From: a virus | Strand: one strand, 5' to 3' | DNA length: 64,000 nucleotides | IMG/VR virus record: IMGVR_UViG_3300045740_000123 | Location: 1 to 64,000 of that record | Part shown: piece by piece, positions 14,326 through 64,000 of the stretch | Numbering within the stretch: position 1 is the stretch's first letter | How the letters are laid out: each line of letters opens with the position of its first letter | Notes under the pieces: model-generated | What the model saw: only the letters and a program-made list of their open reading frames with translations | Told to the model about the DNA's origin: nothing | Databases searched by the model: none | Made by a program: the position numbers and the translations under genes

Positions 14326-15149
14326 CTCCTGGTCTCTAGTTTCTTAGAGGGGTGGACTATCTCTTCATCCCTGAGGGATGCCGGACGCTAAATCTGGTAT
14401 TACGTAACAAGAACGTGTTACCCCCAGTAGTCTCTGCACCTTCCAATCACGCTTGATTGGCTTGGCTCAGGATTACCCTCGTCTTTACGTTAGGGCTTCC
14501 CTGAATTCATCCGGTTTGCACTCATCGATTGCTCGGTGAGGTGACAACGTTGAGCGTTCAGTTGAGGCATGTTAAGCTTTGGAAACTTGTTTATAAACAA
14601 TATGAATCCAAAACTTGTTCCTGGATTTGGTAATCTTTACTTAACGGAAGAAGGAAAGGCTTTCGAAAAACAGCTTGATCCCGACAATCAAGAATATTTT
14701 CGAGAGATTCCCATCAGATCAACCAGTGTTTATGACCGTATTTCAGTTCTTGTAGATGGAAAACGAAAAAGATTTCATCTTCACGTCTTGATGGCGGTTG
14801 CCTTTTTAGGATTAGATCTGCGTTCTCATGGAACCAGTAACTTTTCCTTACAGGTTGATCACAAAGATAACAACAAGAAAAACAATCGAGTTGAAAATCT
14901 AGAGATCGTTACCAAACAAGAGAATTTAACAAGAGCTTGGAAAAACGGTTGTTACGAAAACAATGGTTTTGCCAGTAAAGGGAAACCGAAAAAATCTTTG
15001 AGAAAGTTTTCTTCGGTCGATGTGGAGCAGATTAAGGCTTTAAAAGAAGCTGGTCTCTCTTATAGAAAGATTGCTGAAAAGTTTAACTGCAACCACGGAG
15101 CTATTTACCAAATCCTAAAAGGATATACCTACCAGGATCTGAACTAGCT
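14326..15149 (-). mobile_element. group I intron in major capsid gene
   Basis: P GAATTCAGGGAA, Q GGTAATCCTGAGCC, R GGTGCAGAGACTA, S GAAGAGATAGTCC in order; 5' splice after U, terminal G; IGS CGTTGTCA (14542-14549) pairs the junction TGAT|AACG with G.U at the splice site. Confidence 0.92.
14602..15147 (+). CDS. intron-encoded HNH homing endonuclease, antisense to intron (alternative start 14569)
   Basis: LHVLMAVAFLG...QVDHKDNNKKNNRVENLEIVT..EN plus C-terminal HTH. Confidence 0.9.
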   Translation: MNPKLVPGFGNLYLTEEGKAFEKQLDPDNQEYFREIPIRSTSVYDRISVLVDGKRKRFHLHVLMAVAFLGLDLRSHGTSNFSLQVDHKDNNKKNNRVENLEIVTKQENLTRAWKNGCYENNGFASKGKPKKSLRKFSSVDVEQIKALKEAGLSYRKIAEKFNCNHGAIYQILKGYTYQDLN

Positions 15150-42898: not shown

Positions 42899-43537
42899 AT
42901 GAACGTTGACTTAACTTGGGTAACGCCCAATGCTGAAGAACTCATCGTTAAGATGGCACGGGTCTCAGCACCTAAGAACCAAGACAACATGGAGACAGCT
43001 CCAAAGTTGTTGCGTTACTTGATCAAGCACAAGCACTGGTCGCCATTTGAAATGGCAAACATGTGCGTAGAAATCGAGACGACGCGTGCAATCTCACCAC
43101 AGATTCTTCGTCATCGTTCGTTTAGCTTCCAGGAATTTAGTCAGCGTTATGCAGACACAAATGAACTGGGCTCAGCTGTTATTCCGCATCTACGTAGACA
43201 AGATCAGAAGAACAGGCAAAACAGTATTGATGACTTATCTTCTGATCTTGTTGGTACTTATTATCGACGCATCAGTGAACTGTATGAGAACGCAGAACAT
43301 CTGTATCGCGAGATGGTAAGCAATGGTATTGCCAAGGAATGTGCCCGTTCCATTCTGCCGCTATCGACACAGACCCGTCTCTTCATGAACGGTACACTTA
43401 GGTCTTATATACATTATTTACAAGTGCGAACTGACCCAAGTACTCAGCTTGAGCATCGACAAATTGCCTTGGAAATCAAAAAGATTTTTTGCCAACAGTT
43501 TCCAATTATTGGTGAGGCTGTATTTAGTGATCAATGA
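42899..43537 (+). CDS. thyX: flavin-dependent thymidylate synthase
   Basis: HWSPFEM, QILRHRSFSFQEFSQRY, AKECAR, TQLEHR. Confidence 0.95.
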   Translation: MNVDLTWVTPNAEELIVKMARVSAPKNQDNMETAPKLLRYLIKHKHWSPFEMANMCVEIETTRAISPQILRHRSFSFQEFSQRYADTNELGSAVIPHLRRQDQKNRQNSIDDLSSDLVGTYYRRISELYENAEHLYREMVSNGIAKECARSILPLSTQTRLFMNGTLRSYIHYLQVRTDPSTQLEHRQIALEIKKIFCQQFPIIGEAVFSDQ

Positions 43538-43995
43538 TTAAGCATTGTCGTTATTGTGAGCAGGATAAACCTTCTGCTCACTTTTCTCCACACCCACATA
43601 CAACTGATCGTTTAAGTAACAAATGCAAAGACTGTGTCAGTGTTTACAACAAACTTCGACATTCAAAAAGAACCAGAAAAGAACTGGATTTAATCAATGC
43701 AAAACGAAGAGCAAACAGAAACACATGGAAAACCGATAGGAAAAAACATTTCAAAAGAGCATATGGAATTACTGTTGAAGACTATGAGGTAATGCTGGTT
43801 AACCAAAATAGTGTTTGCAAGATTTGCAATAAACCATGCAAGTCAGGTAAAAGTTTAGCTGTTGATCATTGCCATGAAACCGGAAAGGTCCGAGGTTTAC
43901 TGTGTGCAAAATGCAACACAAATCTTGGACGTATCGAAGCATACCTTCGTGATCCTAAACCATGGGATGATTATCTTAAATCCTACGAACCTTAA
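43534..43995 (+). CDS. endonuclease VII-type homing endonuclease
   Basis: YGIT..DY..M...Q...CKIC....LAVDHCHETGKVRGLLC..CN..LG. Confidence 0.9.
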   Translation: MIKHCRYCEQDKPSAHFSPHPHTTDRLSNKCKDCVSVYNKLRHSKRTRKELDLINAKRRANRNTWKTDRKKHFKRAYGITVEDYEVMLVNQNSVCKICNKPCKSGKSLAVDHCHETGKVRGLLCAKCNTNLGRIEAYLRDPKPWDDYLKSYEP

Positions 43996-44760: not shown

Positions 44761-44889
44761 ATCCACTACCTTGATCTCCGCTGCTCCAATGGAACTCAAC
44801 TCGAGCACCAACAAATTGCCAGAGCAATCAGAAAAATCTTCTGTGAACAATTCCCAATCATTGGAGAAGCTGTGTTCTCAGCAGATTAA
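44761..44889 (+). pseudogene. thyX: displaced second copy of thyX 3' end
   Basis: Translates IHYLDLRCSNGTQLEHQQIARAIRKIFCEQFPIIGEAVFSAD*, paralleling thyX C-terminus. Confidence 0.9.
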
Positions 44890-59016: not shown

Positions 59017-59568
59017 ATGTATACTCCTGGTCCTCAAGTGGTTCCTGCGCCTGAAGCAGCGCCAATGCAGCCTGTTCCAGAACCTCAGGCAAAGCCAAAA
59101 GGCCCTGCCCGTTCAAAGAATGGTGATGTCGGGGCCTTTATCCAGCAGTGCATCTCCTTGGCTTCTTACCTCAAGGAACTTCAGACACAAGCCCATCTTA
59201 TTCACCTGAACTACGAGGGGTCGAACTTCCTCGGGGTGCATGCTTTCCTTGGAGATCAGTACGAGGCTCATCAGACTCAATTTGATACGTTGTCGGAATT
59301 CATCAGGTCTATGGATTACCTGATGCCTATGTGTGCCAGGGGTCTAGCCGATGCTGGTCCTGGCATCCAGCACGTTACCAGCTACAAGGGAAGCGATCAG
59401 CTCACCACGTACTACAAAAACCTGGAAGAGCTGGGCATGAAGACCAAGAAGCTGGAGCCTATTGCTGCCAAGGTGGGTGCTATTGATATCCAGAACTACA
59501 TGGCTGAGCTGTGTGGTCAAGCCTTTAAGGCTGCTTGGCAAATCAAAGCTACACTTAGGACTTCTTAA
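59017..59568 (+). CDS. Dps/ferritin-like protein
   Basis: HLIHLNYEGSNFL.VH.FL..QYE.....FD.LSE.IRS, KAAW.IKA. Confidence 0.8.
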   Translation: MYTPGPQVVPAPEAAPMQPVPEPQAKPKGPARSKNGDVGAFIQQCISLASYLKELQTQAHLIHLNYEGSNFLGVHAFLGDQYEAHQTQFDTLSEFIRSMDYLMPMCARGLADAGPGIQHVTSYKGSDQLTTYYKNLEELGMKTKKLEPIAAKVGAIDIQNYMAELCGQAFKAAWQIKATLRTS

Positions 59569-60013
59569 ATTTTTGCCCTGGAATAACTGGTTGCATTACT
59601 GCGTCGTAATGTGACCAACCAAGTTTTAATCGTCGTTCAATAGTCTGACGTTTAAGGCCTATTTCTAGCGCCCATTCTTTAACTGTTTGGCATTTGCCAT
59701 CAATGGTTATATAAATACACATTGAACGATTTCTGTTTTGTTCAATGCGTGTTGCCCATTTGCAATTATCTGGAGAATAACCTTTGCTTAAATTAATGCG
59801 TTCAATAGAGTATTCTTTACCAGGTCGTTCTCCCATGTCCATTAAAAAGTTTTCAAAACTATTCCATCTATCACAAACTTTAATTCCTTTTGCACCATAT
59901 CTTTCGTAGGCTTTTGTATTTGGATTATTACATCTTGAGCGCATATTATGCCAAGTAGAATGAGTCAAAGAACGAATACCGTTTGTCGAATGGCCATGTC
60001 GTTGAGCGCTCAT
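59555..60013 (-). CDS. HNH-like homing endonuclease
   Basis: W.NMRSRC.NP....Y.RYG.KGI.VC.RW..FENF..DMG.RP...SIERI....GYSP.NC.WAT...Q.RN. Confidence 0.8.
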   Translation of the reverse strand: MSAQRHGHSTNGIRSLTHSTWHNMRSRCNNPNTKAYERYGAKGIKVCDRWNSFENFLMDMGERPGKEYSIERINLSKGYSPDNCKWATRIEQNRNRSMCIYITIDGKCQTVKEWALEIGLKRQTIERRLKLGWSHYDAVMQPVIPGQKFKKS

Positions 60014-60043
60014 TGCCAAGGTTGCGGAAGTAACCAGTCTAAC

Positions 60044-60067
60044 AAAGCCACGTTGCGCAATGGCTGA
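60044..60067 (+). pseudogene. displaced 3' end of Dps-like gene
   Basis: AAA GCC ACG TTG CGC AAT GGC TGA = KATLRNG*, versus KATLRTS* in gene; TGA overlaps next ATG. Confidence 0.7.
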
Positions 60068-60927
60068 TGCCAAACATCTTTCAAAACTTTCTTAACCAAG
60101 TAACTTCTGGTTATCGCCAAGCAGATAAACAGTTGGGTGGATGGTTGCCAGGGGGTGGCACTGCTTCTCCTGTGACGCGTATAGTATTCCCTCCTCAAAG
60201 CTTTCCTGCCAGAAGCAAAGAGCTTCAACAAATGACAGGCGTCAAAGGACGTTTTGTAGATATTGATAAAACCCCGACAATTACGCGACAAATTGCACAA
60301 ACAGTGGCTCCACTGTGGGGATCGCAGCCCTATGCAAACCCTTTGATTGGCGAGGTTGGCGCCCCCGGTTATAGGGGAGGAGCAACACCAAGAGAAAGAC
60401 ACTTAGAAATTCATGAGCTTGGTCATTTAAATCCAGCCGATAAAGGCATCTATAGTTATTTAGGCGTAGCTGGAAGATACTTGCAAGGACTTAGCAACAG
60501 CACTGGTAACTTACCTGTTGTTGATCTTTTGGCTGGTAAACTAATGAAACATTTTGATGCACAGGAGGAAGACCGTGCAGAACGTTTTGCAGCTCGTTTT
60601 GCAACCCAAGGAAATTATCCTGCTCCTCAAATAAACCCTGAAGGAACCTCTGCCTATGGAGATCGGCTAAGAAAAGAAGGTAGTGAGATGAGCGAAAATG
60701 CTGTTAGTAGAATGCTTAATCCTTGGGGAATCCCTGAAAAAATAACCGGGCTTGTAAATCAACAACGGGCATCTATTCTACAAAATGAATTATCACGCTC
60801 ACTTCCTATTTATCGGGAACGTTTTGGAGGGGAAACCGAGCTTTCTCCAGAAAATTTAAAAGAAACAGAACGTCTTAACAATTTGGCAAAGCAAATAGAA
60901 GCTTTAGGAATTCAACCAAGGTACTAA
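60067..60927 (+). CDS. hypothetical protein with HExxH motif
   Basis: EIHELGH...EEDRAERFA. Confidence 0.55.
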   Translation: MPNIFQNFLNQVTSGYRQADKQLGGWLPGGGTASPVTRIVFPPQSFPARSKELQQMTGVKGRFVDIDKTPTITRQIAQTVAPLWGSQPYANPLIGEVGAPGYRGGATPRERHLEIHELGHLNPADKGIYSYLGVAGRYLQGLSNSTGNLPVVDLLAGKLMKHFDAQEEDRAERFAARFATQGNYPAPQINPEGTSAYGDRLRKEGSEMSENAVSRMLNPWGIPEKITGLVNQQRASILQNELSRSLPIYRERFGGETELSPENLKETERLNNLAKQIEALGIQPRY

Positions 60928-61181
60928 GTTACTGACCAGTGCTCAAGCCTGTGGCAATTGCAGCATAACGGGATGCACTTGCTGATCTCTTCTTCTACTC
61001 GGCCCCAGCCGTAGCCATGGTTCACCATGTCAGATATGTTGTTATCCTTGTCTCCAATGTGGTGAAACTCTAAGACACGGTGATCATCCAACCCACACTT
61101 CTTGCACTGCAGAGTCTTCTTGTACTCCAGAAGCTTCTGTCGATTCTTGTTGATACGTTCCTTGGATTGACTCCAGGGCAT
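60924..61181 (-). CDS. small HNH-like protein
   Basis: CKKCG.....LEFHH...EEISKCIPLCCNCHR..H. Confidence 0.8.
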   Translation of the reverse strand: MPWSQSKERINKNRQKLLEYKKTLQCKKCGLDDHRVLEFHHIGDKDNNISDMVNHGYGWGRVEEEISKCIPLCCNCHRLEHWSVT

Positions 61182-61233
61182 TCATAGCTTTATTGGTGTA
61201 ATTAATATAACGCTTTTATTGGAATTGTTGATA

Positions 61234-61270
61234 TCGGAGATGCAGGATTCGAACCTGCGACCCTCTGCTC
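61234..61270 (-). pseudogene. 3' half of interrupted tRNA (Pro-type acceptor)
   Basis: GAGCAGA-GGGTC-GCAGG-TTCGAAT-CCTGC-ATCTCCG-A. Confidence 0.88.
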
Positions 61271-61662
61271 TATTTAGCTTTTTGTTTCTTCACCTCTCTT
61301 TGCTTTTTACCCGCCTGGCTTTTTGCTGTTTTGCACAAATCACACCGACATCCATATTTGGAATACGACCAAACTGTCCCATGTGTTTGTCGTTTTTCGT
61401 TGGTCCAGCCTTTACCATAACTTCCTTCTTCTAAAGTCTTAATGTGATGACAGGGTTTGCAAAGTAACTGACACTTTTTAAGTTCTGTTTCTAATGTATC
61501 CCAATGGGTTGACCACTTGCAGCTAATATCAAAACTTTTAGAAGTGTGATCTATGTGGTCAATATGCAACAAATCAGAACAGCCGCATTTAATGCAAACA
61601 CCCCCAAGAAAATCAATCATCTCTTGGCGACGTTTTTTGTAATCAGAAATTTTTGAAACCAT
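61270..61662 (-). CDS. HNH endonuclease inside tRNA
   Basis: LGGVCIKCG....LHIDHID...ELKKCQLLCKPCH..KT; HGT...Y..YGCRC..C; ATG 61662. Confidence 0.88.
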   Translation of the reverse strand: MVSKISDYKKRRQEMIDFLGGVCIKCGCSDLLHIDHIDHTSKSFDISCKWSTHWDTLETELKKCQLLCKPCHHIKTLEEGSYGKGWTNEKRQTHGTVWSYSKYGCRCDLCKTAKSQAGKKQREVKKQKAK

Positions 61663-61667
61663 AAAAA

Positions 61668-61738
61668 TCGGGGTGGAAGGTACTGCCCCTTCTCCTCCGC
61701 CTCCCAAAGACGGCGTGATACTTTTCTACTACACCCCG
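61668..61738 (-). tRNA. trnP: atypical tRNA-Pro(UGG)
   Basis: CGGGGTG/CACCCCG acceptor plus A, CCGTC-TTTGGGA-GGCGG anticodon arm, GAAGG-GGCAGTA-CCTTC non-canonical T arm, weak D arm. Confidence 0.75.
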
Positions 61739-61755
61739 AGGGGTCCGATCAATTT

Positions 61756-61788
61756 AGCAGATGCGCTACCAAACTGCGCTAATCCCCG
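61756..61788 (-). pseudogene. 5' half of interrupted tRNA (Pro-type)
   Basis: CGGGGAT-TA-GCGC-AGTTTGGTA-GCGC-A-TCTGC-T; pairs with 3' half at 61234-61270. Confidence 0.88.
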
Positions 61789-61912
61789 GTGTTAGGGCGA
61801 GAGTGTCTGCCTACGATGATCTACGATGCAGCCGAGGGGACTCTTCGTTTAATACGACGTTCCTTGTCGTACCCTTTGCAGCCCCATCGGAAAGAGAGGG
61901 GGTACTTATTTA

Positions 61913-62461
61913 TTATACAGATTCATTGGGTGTTTTCCAGAAATAATCATCGCATTCTCCAAGCCGACCCCACTTCTCTTCCCGATAATCAATATCTTTA
62001 GTTAAAAAATCAATAGCGTTTTTCAATATTTGGATATTGTCTTTGGCGTGGCCAAGCATTGTATTGCATCTATGGCATAAAAGCCCTCTAACCTTGCCTG
62101 TTTCATGGCAATGATCTACACAAAATGTTTTCTTTGGAGCGGGACTGTTTGTTTTGCATATGGCGCAACAACCTTTTTGAATTTCCAGAATTTGTTTGTA
62201 TCTACCCCTAGGTAAACCATAGGAACGCAAACGATCAAGATCATTAGCGTGTTCTAAATTGTTTTGGCGCCATCGATTGTAATTTTCTTGATGGCGCTTT
62301 TTGTTTTTTCTTGACCATTCCCGGCTGTACTCGTTTGTACAAACACGGCACCAAGTATTTAAACCATCTTTGTTTTTCTTTGCTTTGTTAAAAGCATCCT
62401 TGGATTTAATCTCTAGGCATTTGGTGCATTTTTTCGTTGGGAGTTTGCCAGAAATAGTCAT
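61913..62461 (-). CDS. endonuclease VII-type homing endonuclease fused to displaced C-terminus of upstream gene
   Basis: CTKC..CRVC; YGL....Y...L..Q.GCCAIC....VDHCHETGKVRGLLC.RCN..LG; ends KWGRLGECDDYFWKTPNESV. Confidence 0.9.
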   Translation of the reverse strand: MTISGKLPTKKCTKCLEIKSKDAFNKAKKNKDGLNTWCRVCTNEYSREWSRKNKKRHQENYNRWRQNNLEHANDLDRLRSYGLPRGRYKQILEIQKGCCAICKTNSPAPKKTFCVDHCHETGKVRGLLCHRCNTMLGHAKDNIQILKNAIDFLTKDIDYREEKWGRLGECDDYFWKTPNESV

Positions 62462-63095
62462 CGCACTCGCCTAGGCGCCCCCATTTTAACGCTTTTTCAG
62501 AGTCAAAGTATCGAGTCGATACCTTAAAGTCTGGTGTCTTTAGATCGTGGTTGGTGAGCGATGGATCAACCATTCGACAACGATTGTTGGGATAAGCGCC
62601 AATTTGACCGTTGTCCAAAGCCACAATGTTGTGGGACTTATGCTCGTCAGGAAATTCCGCAAAGTAAAAATCCGGTTCGTTCCTATGAGGATGATAATTG
62701 TCAACCGTAAATAGGTATGTGCCTTTCATTACACCTGCACTACGTGTCATAACTTGAAACTCCATATTGAAGATCAAGTTCTTTTCGACAACCGTAAGAC
62801 CATGATCAAATCCATTCCAGAACTGCAGGTCAGTTAGCTCTAGGTCAGGAGTGGGTGCTTGAGGTTTGTCCGGATAATCTGGATCCCATGCCAGGAATGC
62901 ACTGATGGGAAGCTTGTCGTAAAGGGCTCCGTACTCAGTAAGATAAGTCTCAAACTGAAGTGCTCTACCAGTTAAAGATTTACAACTTACCCAATAACCA
63001 GGCGTATATTCACCATGACCGTCTCTTAGGTCACGTAAGTATTCACGCCTTACCCAAACCTTGACGGGCGGGACATTGGCCACAAGAGTTGTCAC
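62406..63095 (-). CDS. conserved hypothetical phage protein
   Basis: 229 aa; LVANVPP..VWVRREYL.D...GHGE, EHKSHN..ALDNGQ..AYPNNR. Confidence 0.7.
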   Translation of the reverse strand: MTTLVANVPPVKVWVRREYLRDLRDGHGEYTPGYWVSCKSLTGRALQFETYLTEYGALYDKLPISAFLAWDPDYPDKPQAPTPDLELTDLQFWNGFDHGLTVVEKNLIFNMEFQVMTRSAGVMKGTYLFTVDNYHPHRNEPDFYFAEFPDEHKSHNIVALDNGQIGAYPNNRCRMVDPSLTNHDLKTPDFKVSTRYFDSEKALKWGRLGECDDYFWQTPNEKMHQMPRD

Positions 63096-63221
63096 AAAAA
63101 ATCCCGGTGTATCATGCCGGGATCATAGCTTCCTTCCACGCTCTTGTGAGCACCACGTTCGTAACGTGGAGGGGTTTTCGACTATTACCCCTAGAGCGGT
63201 ATTGCTCCGCCTGTCAGCATA

Positions 63222-63428
63222 TCAGGATTTACTTCTTTGATAACGCCTTGCTGCGCGTCCAGCAAGTTTTGCTTTTCTGGTGTTTGGTACAAATTGTTTG
63301 CCTTCGCGGCTAGCCTCGCGTTTCTTTTGGTCAGTCTCTTGCCGTTCTTCTTTAGATAATGAGGCCCAGGCAGACTCAGGTAGATAACGTTTGGTGTATC
63401 CCTTTTGAATTGCTTTATCTGCCATCAT
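63222..63428 (-). CDS. small basic protein
   Basis: TKRYLPESAWASLS.EER.ETDQKKR...GKQFV.NT. Confidence 0.7.
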   Translation of the reverse strand: MMADKAIQKGYTKRYLPESAWASLSKEERQETDQKKREASREGKQFVPNTRKAKLAGRAARRYQRSKS

Positions 63429-63736
63429 TTACTATCCTTGTATTTCTTTGCAGCTTCTTTAGCTTTACCGCGCTTTTCATACTCATCTTTCGTCATCCAT
63501 TTCTCCTTGCCCCACTTCTCCAGGGACTTCTGCTTCTCACCTTTACCTCCTTTGTATCCACCGCCTGCACTCTTGTATTCCTGTGCCACAAGCTGAGCTT
63601 TTCTAGCCGAAATAATTAGTTAGCCTTACGGCTACGACCATTCTCCTGGTTTACCGCCACGGCCTTCACGCATAACTTTGTTTTTGATGCGCTCACGCAG
63701 GTCTGGTTTTGTGTACTTGCTTTTATCTTCAGCCAT
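63425..63736 (-). CDS. small basic protein (DUF5872-like) interrupted by 27-nt stop-containing insert; candidate translational bypass
   Basis: MAEDKSKYTKPDLRERIK...GGKPGEWS | ARKAQLVAQEYKSAGGGYKG...; not in ORF track because of internal stops. Confidence 0.8.
63608..63637 (-). other. putative ribosomal bypass (hop) element
   Basis: TCG TAG CCG TAA GGC TAA CTA ATT ATT TCG: matched codons, stop in TAGCC-GTAA-GGCTA hairpin. Confidence 0.7.
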
Positions 63737-64000
63737 AACTTCCTCGCTCTTTAAGATAAGTGACTGCGTTTGTCAATACATCTATATTATCACCAAATAA
63801 ACCTAAGGCTCTATTGCACTCTTTGCATAATAAACCTCTGAACTCATTGGTTTGATGATTATGGTCCATGGCTAAAGATTGTTTATCCTTGGGAGGCTCT
63901 TGGCAAATTGCGCATAAACCTTCCTGGGACTCAAACACAATGTCGTATTGCTCTTTTGTTATCCCTCTGCGTTCGTATTTTTTGTGATTATGATGCAATA
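63729..64000 (-). CDS. endonuclease VII-type homing endonuclease (5' part outside window)
   Basis: GITKEQY.....Q.GLCAIC.....LAMDHNH.T.EFRGLLCKECNRALG. Confidence 0.85.
   Translation of the reverse strand, partial: LHHNHKKYERRGITKEQYDIVFESQEGLCAICQEPPKDKQSLAMDHNHQTNEFRGLLCKECNRALGLFGDNIDVLTNAVTYLKERGSYG

Follow-up and report, generated by a model that had tools for sequence, protein, structure and literature searches.

How can a gene for a DNA endonuclease come to lie across the end of a conserved viral gene without depriving that gene of its last codons? The question is raised by a locus in IMG/VR virus record IMGVR_UViG_3300045740_000123. The stretch analysed here, hereafter the window, comprises bases 1-64,000 of this 85,144-bp record, which carries direct terminal repeats and is estimated to be complete; the nearest isolate to its genome is the Arctic-lake Synechococcus phage S-EIVl. 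On the minus strand of the window, a conserved cyanophage gene (the host gene) is overlapped at its end by an open reading frame (ORF) for a nuclease with an EndoVII motif, and the last conserved block of the host protein is encoded twice, once at the end of the host gene (copy U) and once at the end of the nuclease (copy D). It is quite likely that a free-standing homing endonuclease cassette invaded this conserved coding sequence without an intron or an intein. A preliminary description of the DNA, made from the letters alone, had proposed a patched host gene and a nuclease that borrows the old stop codon, and that first reading is supported by the sequence comparisons reported below.

The features of the locus are as follows, in the direction of transcription.
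63095-62406, minus strand: the host gene, an ORF of 229 amino acids for a conserved cyanophage protein (phrog_3704, E 1.7e-97)
62487-62501, minus strand: S-E-K-A-L, the haplotype of the junction just before U, which goes with the nuclease and is a candidate immunity polymorphism of the target site
62486-62433, minus strand: U, an imported stand-in for the conserved C-terminal block (KWGRLGECDDYFWQTPNE), translated in the host frame; its +1 frame supplies the first codons of the nuclease
62406-62432, minus strand: the new host tail K-M-H-Q-M-P-R-D-stop, formed where the host frame runs on into the 5' coding sequence of the nuclease
62461-61913, minus strand: the free-standing nuclease ORF of the EndoVII-motif/DHHRN family, 182 amino acids (PF02945, phrog_2633)
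62327-62434, minus strand: the N-terminal CxxC...CxxC zinc ribbon of the nuclease (residues 10-45), the presumed DNA-recognition module
62000-62227, minus strand: the EndoVII catalytic beta-beta-alpha-metal domain (residues 79-154), with motif residues intact
61975-61922, minus strand: D, the resident C-terminal block in its displaced position, where it forms residues 163-180 of the nuclease by in-frame fusion
61913-61921, minus strand: S-V-stop, the codons with which the displaced end natively closes and with which the nuclease now ends; native alleles end in TPNESVE-stop, TPNETV-stop or similar
61880-61912, minus strand: the native 3' flank of the host gene, which follows directly on D, an order shared by relatives without the nuclease (alignment with related locus L007)

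The duplicated gene end

The host ORF (63095-62406) ends in ...KALKWGRLGECDDYFWQTPNEKMHQMPRD-stop and the nuclease ORF (62461-61913) in ...REEKWGRLGECDDYFWKTPNESV-stop; the ending common to both, KWGRLGECDDYFW(Q/K)TPNE, is 18 residues long with a single Q/K difference. It contains the last conserved block of the host protein, KWGRLG(E)x(D)(D/E)YFWxTPxE, which is invariant in 33 close homologues and still recognisable as LG..YFW.T..E in homologues from T4-like cyanophages at 53-56% identity. At the DNA level, U and D form a 54-nt direct repeat with a spacing of 511 nt and identity at 44 of 54 bases (81%). A match at least this good has a probability of about 7e-15 per offset, and the repeat is therefore not a chance match. 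Nine of the ten differences are synonymous third-position changes and the tenth is a first-position replacement (CAA/AAA, Q/K), which gives proportions of synonymous and non-synonymous differences of pS = 0.93 and pN = 0.023. Thus, the alike endings of the two ORFs and the concentration of differences at third positions, both pointed out in the preliminary description, are borne out by the ORF calls and the alignment. As the 48 distinct native alleles of the 54-nt block share on average 42 of 54 bases (range 34-53), the distance between U and D is that of two alleles drawn at random from the population, and their synonymous saturation is, on this comparison, ordinary allelic divergence between two lineages. 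A special “designed” recoding of U was considered and rejected, because the block is equally diverged across the population.

The ORFs, which are in different frames, have 56 nt in common. As first noticed from the sequence, the nuclease starts within U (ATG at 62461-62459), and it does so in the +1 frame; the host frame stops 56 nt past this ATG, its new tail standing in place of native ends such as KGVE-stop. Each nuclease-bearing allele has exactly one of two nuclease-frame ATGs, both built from host codons of U: GATGAC (Asp-Asp) in the window and in contigs L002 and L115, and AATGAA (Asn-Glu) in L116, L117 and most protein homologues of the nuclease. At the other end, the TAA that stops the nuclease (61915-61913) is the one that natively closes the host gene, and all 16 nuclease versions lack a stop of their own and end at the native stop of the displaced end. 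The replacement end thus doubles as the nuclease start, and the old stop codon is borrowed, in every version. The arrangement in the window is reproduced in a Logan contig of 654 nt from another study (run X3, record 3), which covers 61921-62574, spans D, the nuclease and U, and shows zero differences.

Relatives with and without the nuclease

Eighty host-gene loci were collected from IMG/VR, and a metagenome scan with a profile of the nuclease core yielded three extra nuclease-bearing contigs. Seventy-five of the 80 IMG/VR loci, as well as the isolate S-EIVl, contain a single copy of the block and no nuclease. The nuclease-bearing contigs number five (the window, L002, L115, L116 and L117), come from different samples and projects, and all have exactly the 511-nt spacing between U and D.

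Comparison with homologues lacking the nuclease had been proposed as the way to check the preliminary description, and the roughly 75 related single-copy contigs made this possible. The gene body of L115 is closest to the nuclease-free loci L021 and L022 (92-93%), and its D is 94% identical to theirs and followed by the identical tail TPQEKSV-stop; by contrast, the tract from -16 to +57 around its U is 96% identical to the window and only 73% to L021. Similarly, the body and D of L002 are nearest to L006, and its U is nearest to L004/L005. The gene end and flank of L007 align colinearly with the window from 61975 to 61878, as do those of L006, L009 and L002. From the comparisons of L115 with L021/L022 and of L002 with L006, it follows that D and the flank are resident, whereas U, the nuclease and a short stretch upstream were imported. 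D is the displaced original end, as had been suspected.

The five nuclease-bearing contigs show the same division among themselves. U is uniform (81-98% identical), always reading ECDDYFWQTPNEK followed by nuclease-derived codons, whereas D is varied (67-85%) and the tail and flank behind it vary as well. Between the window and L115, identity is 76% in the 5' part of the gene body, 84% in its 3' part, 96% in U, 91% in the nuclease gene, 81% in D and 56% in the flank, so that similarity of the nuclease is incongruent with that of the gene body (91% versus 76% for its 5' part). Moreover, the tails on nuclease homologues follow diverse types of resident allele (that of P0005 is of the L043 type and that of P0008 of the L076 type), and 80-residue tails ending in KFDR behind nuclease homologues match the nuclease-free loci L043, L041 and L076. 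A presence/absence polymorphism at one precise site and co-conversion of the flanks, by which a homing gene is recognised, are thus both found here. The two forms also occur together: in run X7, nuclease-free contigs in which a V-E-H-A-P junction links 61975 straight to 62503 coexist with a nuclease-bearing contig, these joints being matched at 88% likeness and thus belonging to related strains rather than to the same genome. We regard the anatomy of the locus, the origins of U and D, the presence/absence polymorphism and the co-occurrence of both forms as established.

Junction types and a model of homing

The codons directly before the conserved block differ between the two classes of allele. 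All five nuclease-bearing alleles have E(K/R)xL directly before U. In the nuclease-free alleles (75 IMG/VR loci and S-EIVl), the junction is of the E(H/Q/C/S)(A/V)P type in 70 of 76 and has Leu in the remaining six, an association with the nuclease of p 1.8e-5 by Fisher's test, uncorrected for relatedness. The six nuclease-free alleles with Leu are L003, L004/5, L011, L041 and S-EIVl. All but the last are clear mosaics, of U type on the left and native type on the right, with differing crossover points within the 54-nt block; S-EIVl fits this pattern less cleanly. These mosaics suggest that the nuclease can be lost by recombination between U and D. At D itself, the junction has its native right half, with nuclease sequence at the left. 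To the right of the cassette, the tails and the intergenic DNA 3' of the host gene are hypervariable and D is the only conserved DNA; since nothing else is conserved there, D would act as the right-hand homology arm.

The most likely model is that, during mixed infection, the nuclease cuts a nuclease-free allele at or near the Pro/Lys junction, and repair from the nuclease-bearing genome copies in U and the nuclease. The mobile unit would consist of the last ~16-100 nt of the gene body, U and the nuclease gene, and would enter just upstream of the last conserved block. U restores a complete host protein, while the nuclease starts at the +1-frame ATG formed by host codons in U and reads through D to the native stop. 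Because the junction types differ between nuclease-bearing and nuclease-free alleles and D keeps only the right half, the recognition or cleavage site is predicted to span Pro/Lys; it would be destroyed at D by the insertion and altered at U by the imported haplotype, and the variant junction (SEKAL-KWG instead of VEHAP-KWG) would make U uncleavable. Recombination between U and D, or repair that copies U alone, would give rise to the nuclease-free mosaics, which would presumably be resistant. Within this model, the place of cutting, the resistance of U and the lack of a role for the fused tail (see below) are our inferences.

Alternative explanations and the fused tail

The roles of the two copies might be reversed, such that the nuclease and D form the mobile unit and the nuclease inserted after ...TPNEK of a resident U, bringing a foreign gene end behind it. 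U is indeed colinear with the gene body, and the nuclease-free L004/L005, which have a U-like copy including the Gln and a native end KGVE-stop, might stand for the lineage where the nuclease originally established itself at the stop codon. However, it is D with its tail and 3' flank, and not U, that matches the nearest nuclease-free relative of each nuclease-bearing contig; D types are diverse and U is uniform; and long resident tails stand behind D only, all of which makes this arrangement hard to credit. Even less probable is a host-nuclease fusion protein made by a +1 slip on the A-run in the frame overlap (GAAAAAATG). Such a recoding site would suit the A6 run, which lies exactly where the +1 frame enters KKCTKC of the nuclease, but the run is broken in L115 (GAAAAAGTG), every allele keeps a nuclease-frame ATG, and no stimulatory element was found with Rfam (E <= 1) at 60900-63300. 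As the window is from a metagenome-derived virus record and many strains coexist in the same samples, a chimeric assembly of two strains has to be considered as well, as does a tandem duplication in situ that later diverged. The recurrence of the 511-nt architecture in five contigs from different projects and the independent 654-nt contig without differences speak against an assembly artefact, and a local duplication is hard to square with a divergence between U and D like that of unrelated alleles and with a U foreign to the resident background; we put next to no weight on either.

An alternative of another kind, that the captured tail serves the nuclease, for example as a docking or regulatory peptide, and that the in-frame fusion is kept by selection, concerns the tail only and appears improbable. 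In its favour, all 16 versions keep the junction ...DYRE(E/D)-KWGRLG in frame to the native stop, and in 14 of the 16 tails, some of them at least 80 residues long, every host-invariant residue is retained. However, the tail of L117 reads KLGHLGEKDDYFCK..., with three radical changes (W to L, R to H and W to C) at positions invariant in the 33 host sequences, although its nuclease and U are intact; P0004 has unusual F and I substitutions, and P0013 apparently lacks most of the tail. The tail is also predicted to be disordered (residues 161-182 have no secondary structure and predicted local distance difference test, pLDDT, scores of 47-58, against >93 for the core, in the AlphaFold2 model), and its length and sequence merely copy those of the resident allele, adding ~20 residues in the window and up to ~85 in other alleles. 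Other cassettes and the paralogues have their own stop. The fused tail is therefore probably a passive, unstructured and functionless by-product, as judged from sequence erosion and the predicted structure.

The C-terminal block is present in the 11 closest of 120 nuclease homologues (69-92% identity) and in no others, and homologues at <=45% identity end a few residues past the last helix of the domain. Fusion of the block to more distant EndoVII genes was seen at none of 86 loci, where the sole real motif match, L135, is an intact host gene. None of the isolate-phage matches to the nuclease (1,920 records) extends past residue 156, and the two EndoVII paralogues in the window genome are without the tail. 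The tail is thus not native to EndoVII homologues at unrelated loci, the finding that, according to the preliminary description, would have refuted it.

Several points weigh against the cassette model and the passive tail. Both the place of cutting and the resistance of U are deduced from a haplotype association that is confounded by relatedness, and the window has no close nuclease-free counterpart, so that the before/after argument rests on L115 and L002. The preservation of 14 of the 16 tails at the protein level fits recent acquisition but also some constraint, and an in-frame junction, with a prior of about one third by chance, has been kept in every version; common descent of the junction would account for the latter. 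It may be speculated, at rather long odds, that the in-frame capture was adaptive and that the invariant C-terminal motif of the host protein recruits or regulates the nuclease through the binders of that motif. If so, patch cassettes would be a general route by which free-standing nucleases enter phage coding sequences and borrow the functions of host proteins.

The nuclease

The nuclease ORF scores 88.5 bits against PF02945 (cut-off 23.6). It contains the catalytic and zinc motif CX2-4C ... D-H-x-H ... R ... CX2C-N of the DHHRN family, as defined by Fang et al. (2018; PMC6083498), and C99, C102, D116, H117, H119, R125, C129, C132 and N133 are invariant in an alignment of 51 sequences. In the zinc ribbon, C38 and C41 are invariant and C12 and C15 nearly so. 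The AlphaFold2 model (pLDDT 88 overall and 96-97 in the zinc ribbon) is folded between residues ~10 and 155, and its best Foldseek match is 3fc3 (Hpy99I; E 2.4e-5), followed by 2qnf, 1e7l and 1en7 (T4 EndoVII), as expected of a beta-beta-alpha-metal fold like that of Hpy99I and T4 EndoVII. The best isolate-phage match is 44% identical.

Two other classes were considered for this ORF and rejected. A Holliday-junction resolvase like T4 gp49 would have a C-terminal dimerisation domain, one conserved copy per genome and no separate DNA-binding zinc ribbon. The sequence match spans only gp49 residues 13-72, the nuclease has an N-terminal zinc ribbon, three paralogues are present in the 85-kb genome, each beside duplicated or variable DNA, and the gene is missing from most relatives. 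An endonuclease borne by a group I intron or an intein is not indicated either: neither an intron nor a known regulatory RNA was found in the cassette (Rfam, E <= 1, 60900-63300), PF02945 is the sole Pfam domain found, and the host ORF closes before the nuclease body.

The host gene

Homologues of the host protein occur in 113 phage records, mostly of cyanophages, and the protein is 86% identical to “PurM” of S-EIVl. Record labels disagree (“PurM,” “ferredoxin” and “transcriptional regulator”), and “PurM” is a historical label; in phage P-SSM2, the homologue adjoins a second, larger ORF that is likewise annotated purM. Sequence searches of Pfam, NCBIfam and PDB returned nothing useful, and the protein is therefore treated here as one of unknown function. 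An AlphaFold2 model from a shallow alignment of 33 sequences reached a pLDDT of only 33.

A scan of 61700-63300 for promoters and terminators gave counts within the range expected from shuffled sequence. Over the leader 5' of the host gene (63094-63200, minus strand), summed contig depth is very high in three metagenome runs (bins 63139-63195), and Rfam gives a weak match to anti-hemB (E 0.046); a structured 5' element with wide conservation may lie here.

Other cassettes and nuclease genes in the genome

Cassettes that bring a substitute for what they displace recur in this 85-kb genome, at least three in number (at thyX, the host gene and a tRNA-Pro gene), the fused tail being found only at the host gene. 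The thyX gene (42899-43537, plus strand) has a substitute end of 42 amino acids (43409-43537) and a stranded, diverged original at 44761-44889; an EndoVII gene (43534-43995) starts at the thyX stop, is 34% identical to the nuclease studied here and has its own stop, and three small ORFs precede the stranded copy. Just downstream of D, a tRNA-Pro(UGG) gene (61225-61791, minus strand) is split in the anticodon loop, with loss of the loop sequence TTGGG, into a 5' half (61788 to 61756) and a 3' half (61270 to 61225); the gene is intact in the relatives L009 (3924-3997), L007, L002 and L117. The 485-nt insert follows the same “bring a substitute” logic, as it contains a second, divergent tRNA-Pro(UGG)-like gene (61738 to 61668) together with an HNH ORF (~61662 to 61270; phrog_4234). 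The second tRNA-like gene scores 37.5 bits with Rfam, has an unusual T-loop and is not called by ARAGORN.

Several nuclease lineages have settled downstream of the host gene, which makes this region a hot spot. At L135 (1-975 of JACCDY010902958.1), an intact single-copy host gene comes first, then tRNA-Pro and tRNA-Thr, and behind these a free-standing EndoVII gene distinct from the one studied here, which encodes 149 amino acids with 40% identity and has its own stop. Other unexplained ORFs of 221-239 amino acids lie downstream of the host gene in L006, L013 and L031, and the ORFs directly downstream in L006, L013, L029, L031 and L056 have no Pfam match. The last 5 kb of the window contain five nuclease genes. 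A third EndoVII paralogue (34% identity; record positions 63744-64178, minus strand) is cut by the window end (63729-64000), and HNH-type nuclease ORFs lie within 3 kb at 59555-60073 and 60924-61181 on the minus strand (phrog_3377 and phrog_2255). Elsewhere in the window, a group I intron is located at 14333-14574 on the minus strand (Rfam RF00028, 97 bits).

Implications

The locus offers a natural example, with before and after alleles, of a free-standing homing endonuclease that resides in a conserved phage gene and needs neither an intron nor an intein, nor a translational bypass. What the cassette displaces it also supplies, in a second version that presumably resists cutting; in the process, gene ends are swapped between phage lineages and mosaic alleles, probably immune, are left behind. 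Such cassettes also set traps for annotation, as they leave host-derived tails on nuclease ORFs, chimeric ends on host genes and short spurious homologies. Finally, the codons of VEHAP/KWGRLG constitute a predicted target site for an EndoVII-type nuclease family of which, to our knowledge, F-CphI is the only characterised member.

Comparison with known systems

The closest counterparts in layout are the mobile-ORF (mORF) cassettes of fungal mitochondria, which have been described in atp6, atp9, cox2 and nad3 of Glomus (PMC3630166) and in atp6 of Allomyces macrogynus (Paquin et al., 1994, as cited in PMC3630166); C-terminal duplications of atp6 and cob beside homing endonuclease genes are also on record (PMC6279837). 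Like these, the phage locus has the order of an in-phase foreign C-terminus, an endonuclease ORF behind it and the displaced native C-terminus downstream, and in both cases the inserted end differs mainly at synonymous sites and the native end matches close relatives. The phage locus differs from them in its bacteriophage setting and in that the nuclease belongs to the EndoVII/DHHRN type and not to LAGLIDADG or GIY-YIG. Unlike that of the atp6 cassettes of Allomyces and Glomus, the phage nuclease is out of phase with the upstream gene and has its own +1-frame ATG inside the patch. Furthermore, the native end is usually an untranslated relic in fungi, whereas the phage nuclease is fused to it.

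F-CphI of cyanophage S-PM2 resembles the window nuclease in being free-standing and in having an N-terminal DNA-binding part and a C-terminal EndoVII motif (PMC6083498). By contrast, the F-CphI gene is a neighbour of psbA and the enzyme has an intron insertion site as its target, and neither a patch nor a fused host tail has been described for it (PMC6083498). A close sequence relationship between the two was not apparent (44% for the best isolate-phage match).

Among phages, the nearest concept, by analogy, is the mobA/gene 60 cassette of phage T4, on which Bonocora et al. reportedly published in 2011. That cassette is also discussed in a more recent preprint (bioRxiv 10.1101/2022.08.31.505936). 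In both cases a free-standing nuclease gene lies in a phage coding sequence and extra sequence keeps the host product functional; however, T4 gene 60 is split and relies on a 50-nt translational bypass, whereas here the gene is whole through its duplicated end. A substitute 3' end, mostly synonymous, is likewise brought by prophages on integration, as by phage 21 and e14 in icd of E. coli and at attP sites in tRNA genes. The original end is displaced as a downstream relic there as it is here, but prophages use site-specific integrases; the phage cassette would spread by nuclease-driven gene conversion, and its relic joins the nuclease ORF. Engineered “recoded rescue” homing gene drives share the logic of the cassette as a conceptual parallel only.

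No description of a phage homing endonuclease with a duplicated substitute gene end was found in the literature, a weak negative given the incomplete coverage of the search. The layout as such is known from fungal mitochondria, and what appears new is the variant of it: a cassette in a phage, with a DHHRN nuclease that starts in another frame within the patch and ends fused to the displaced gene end.

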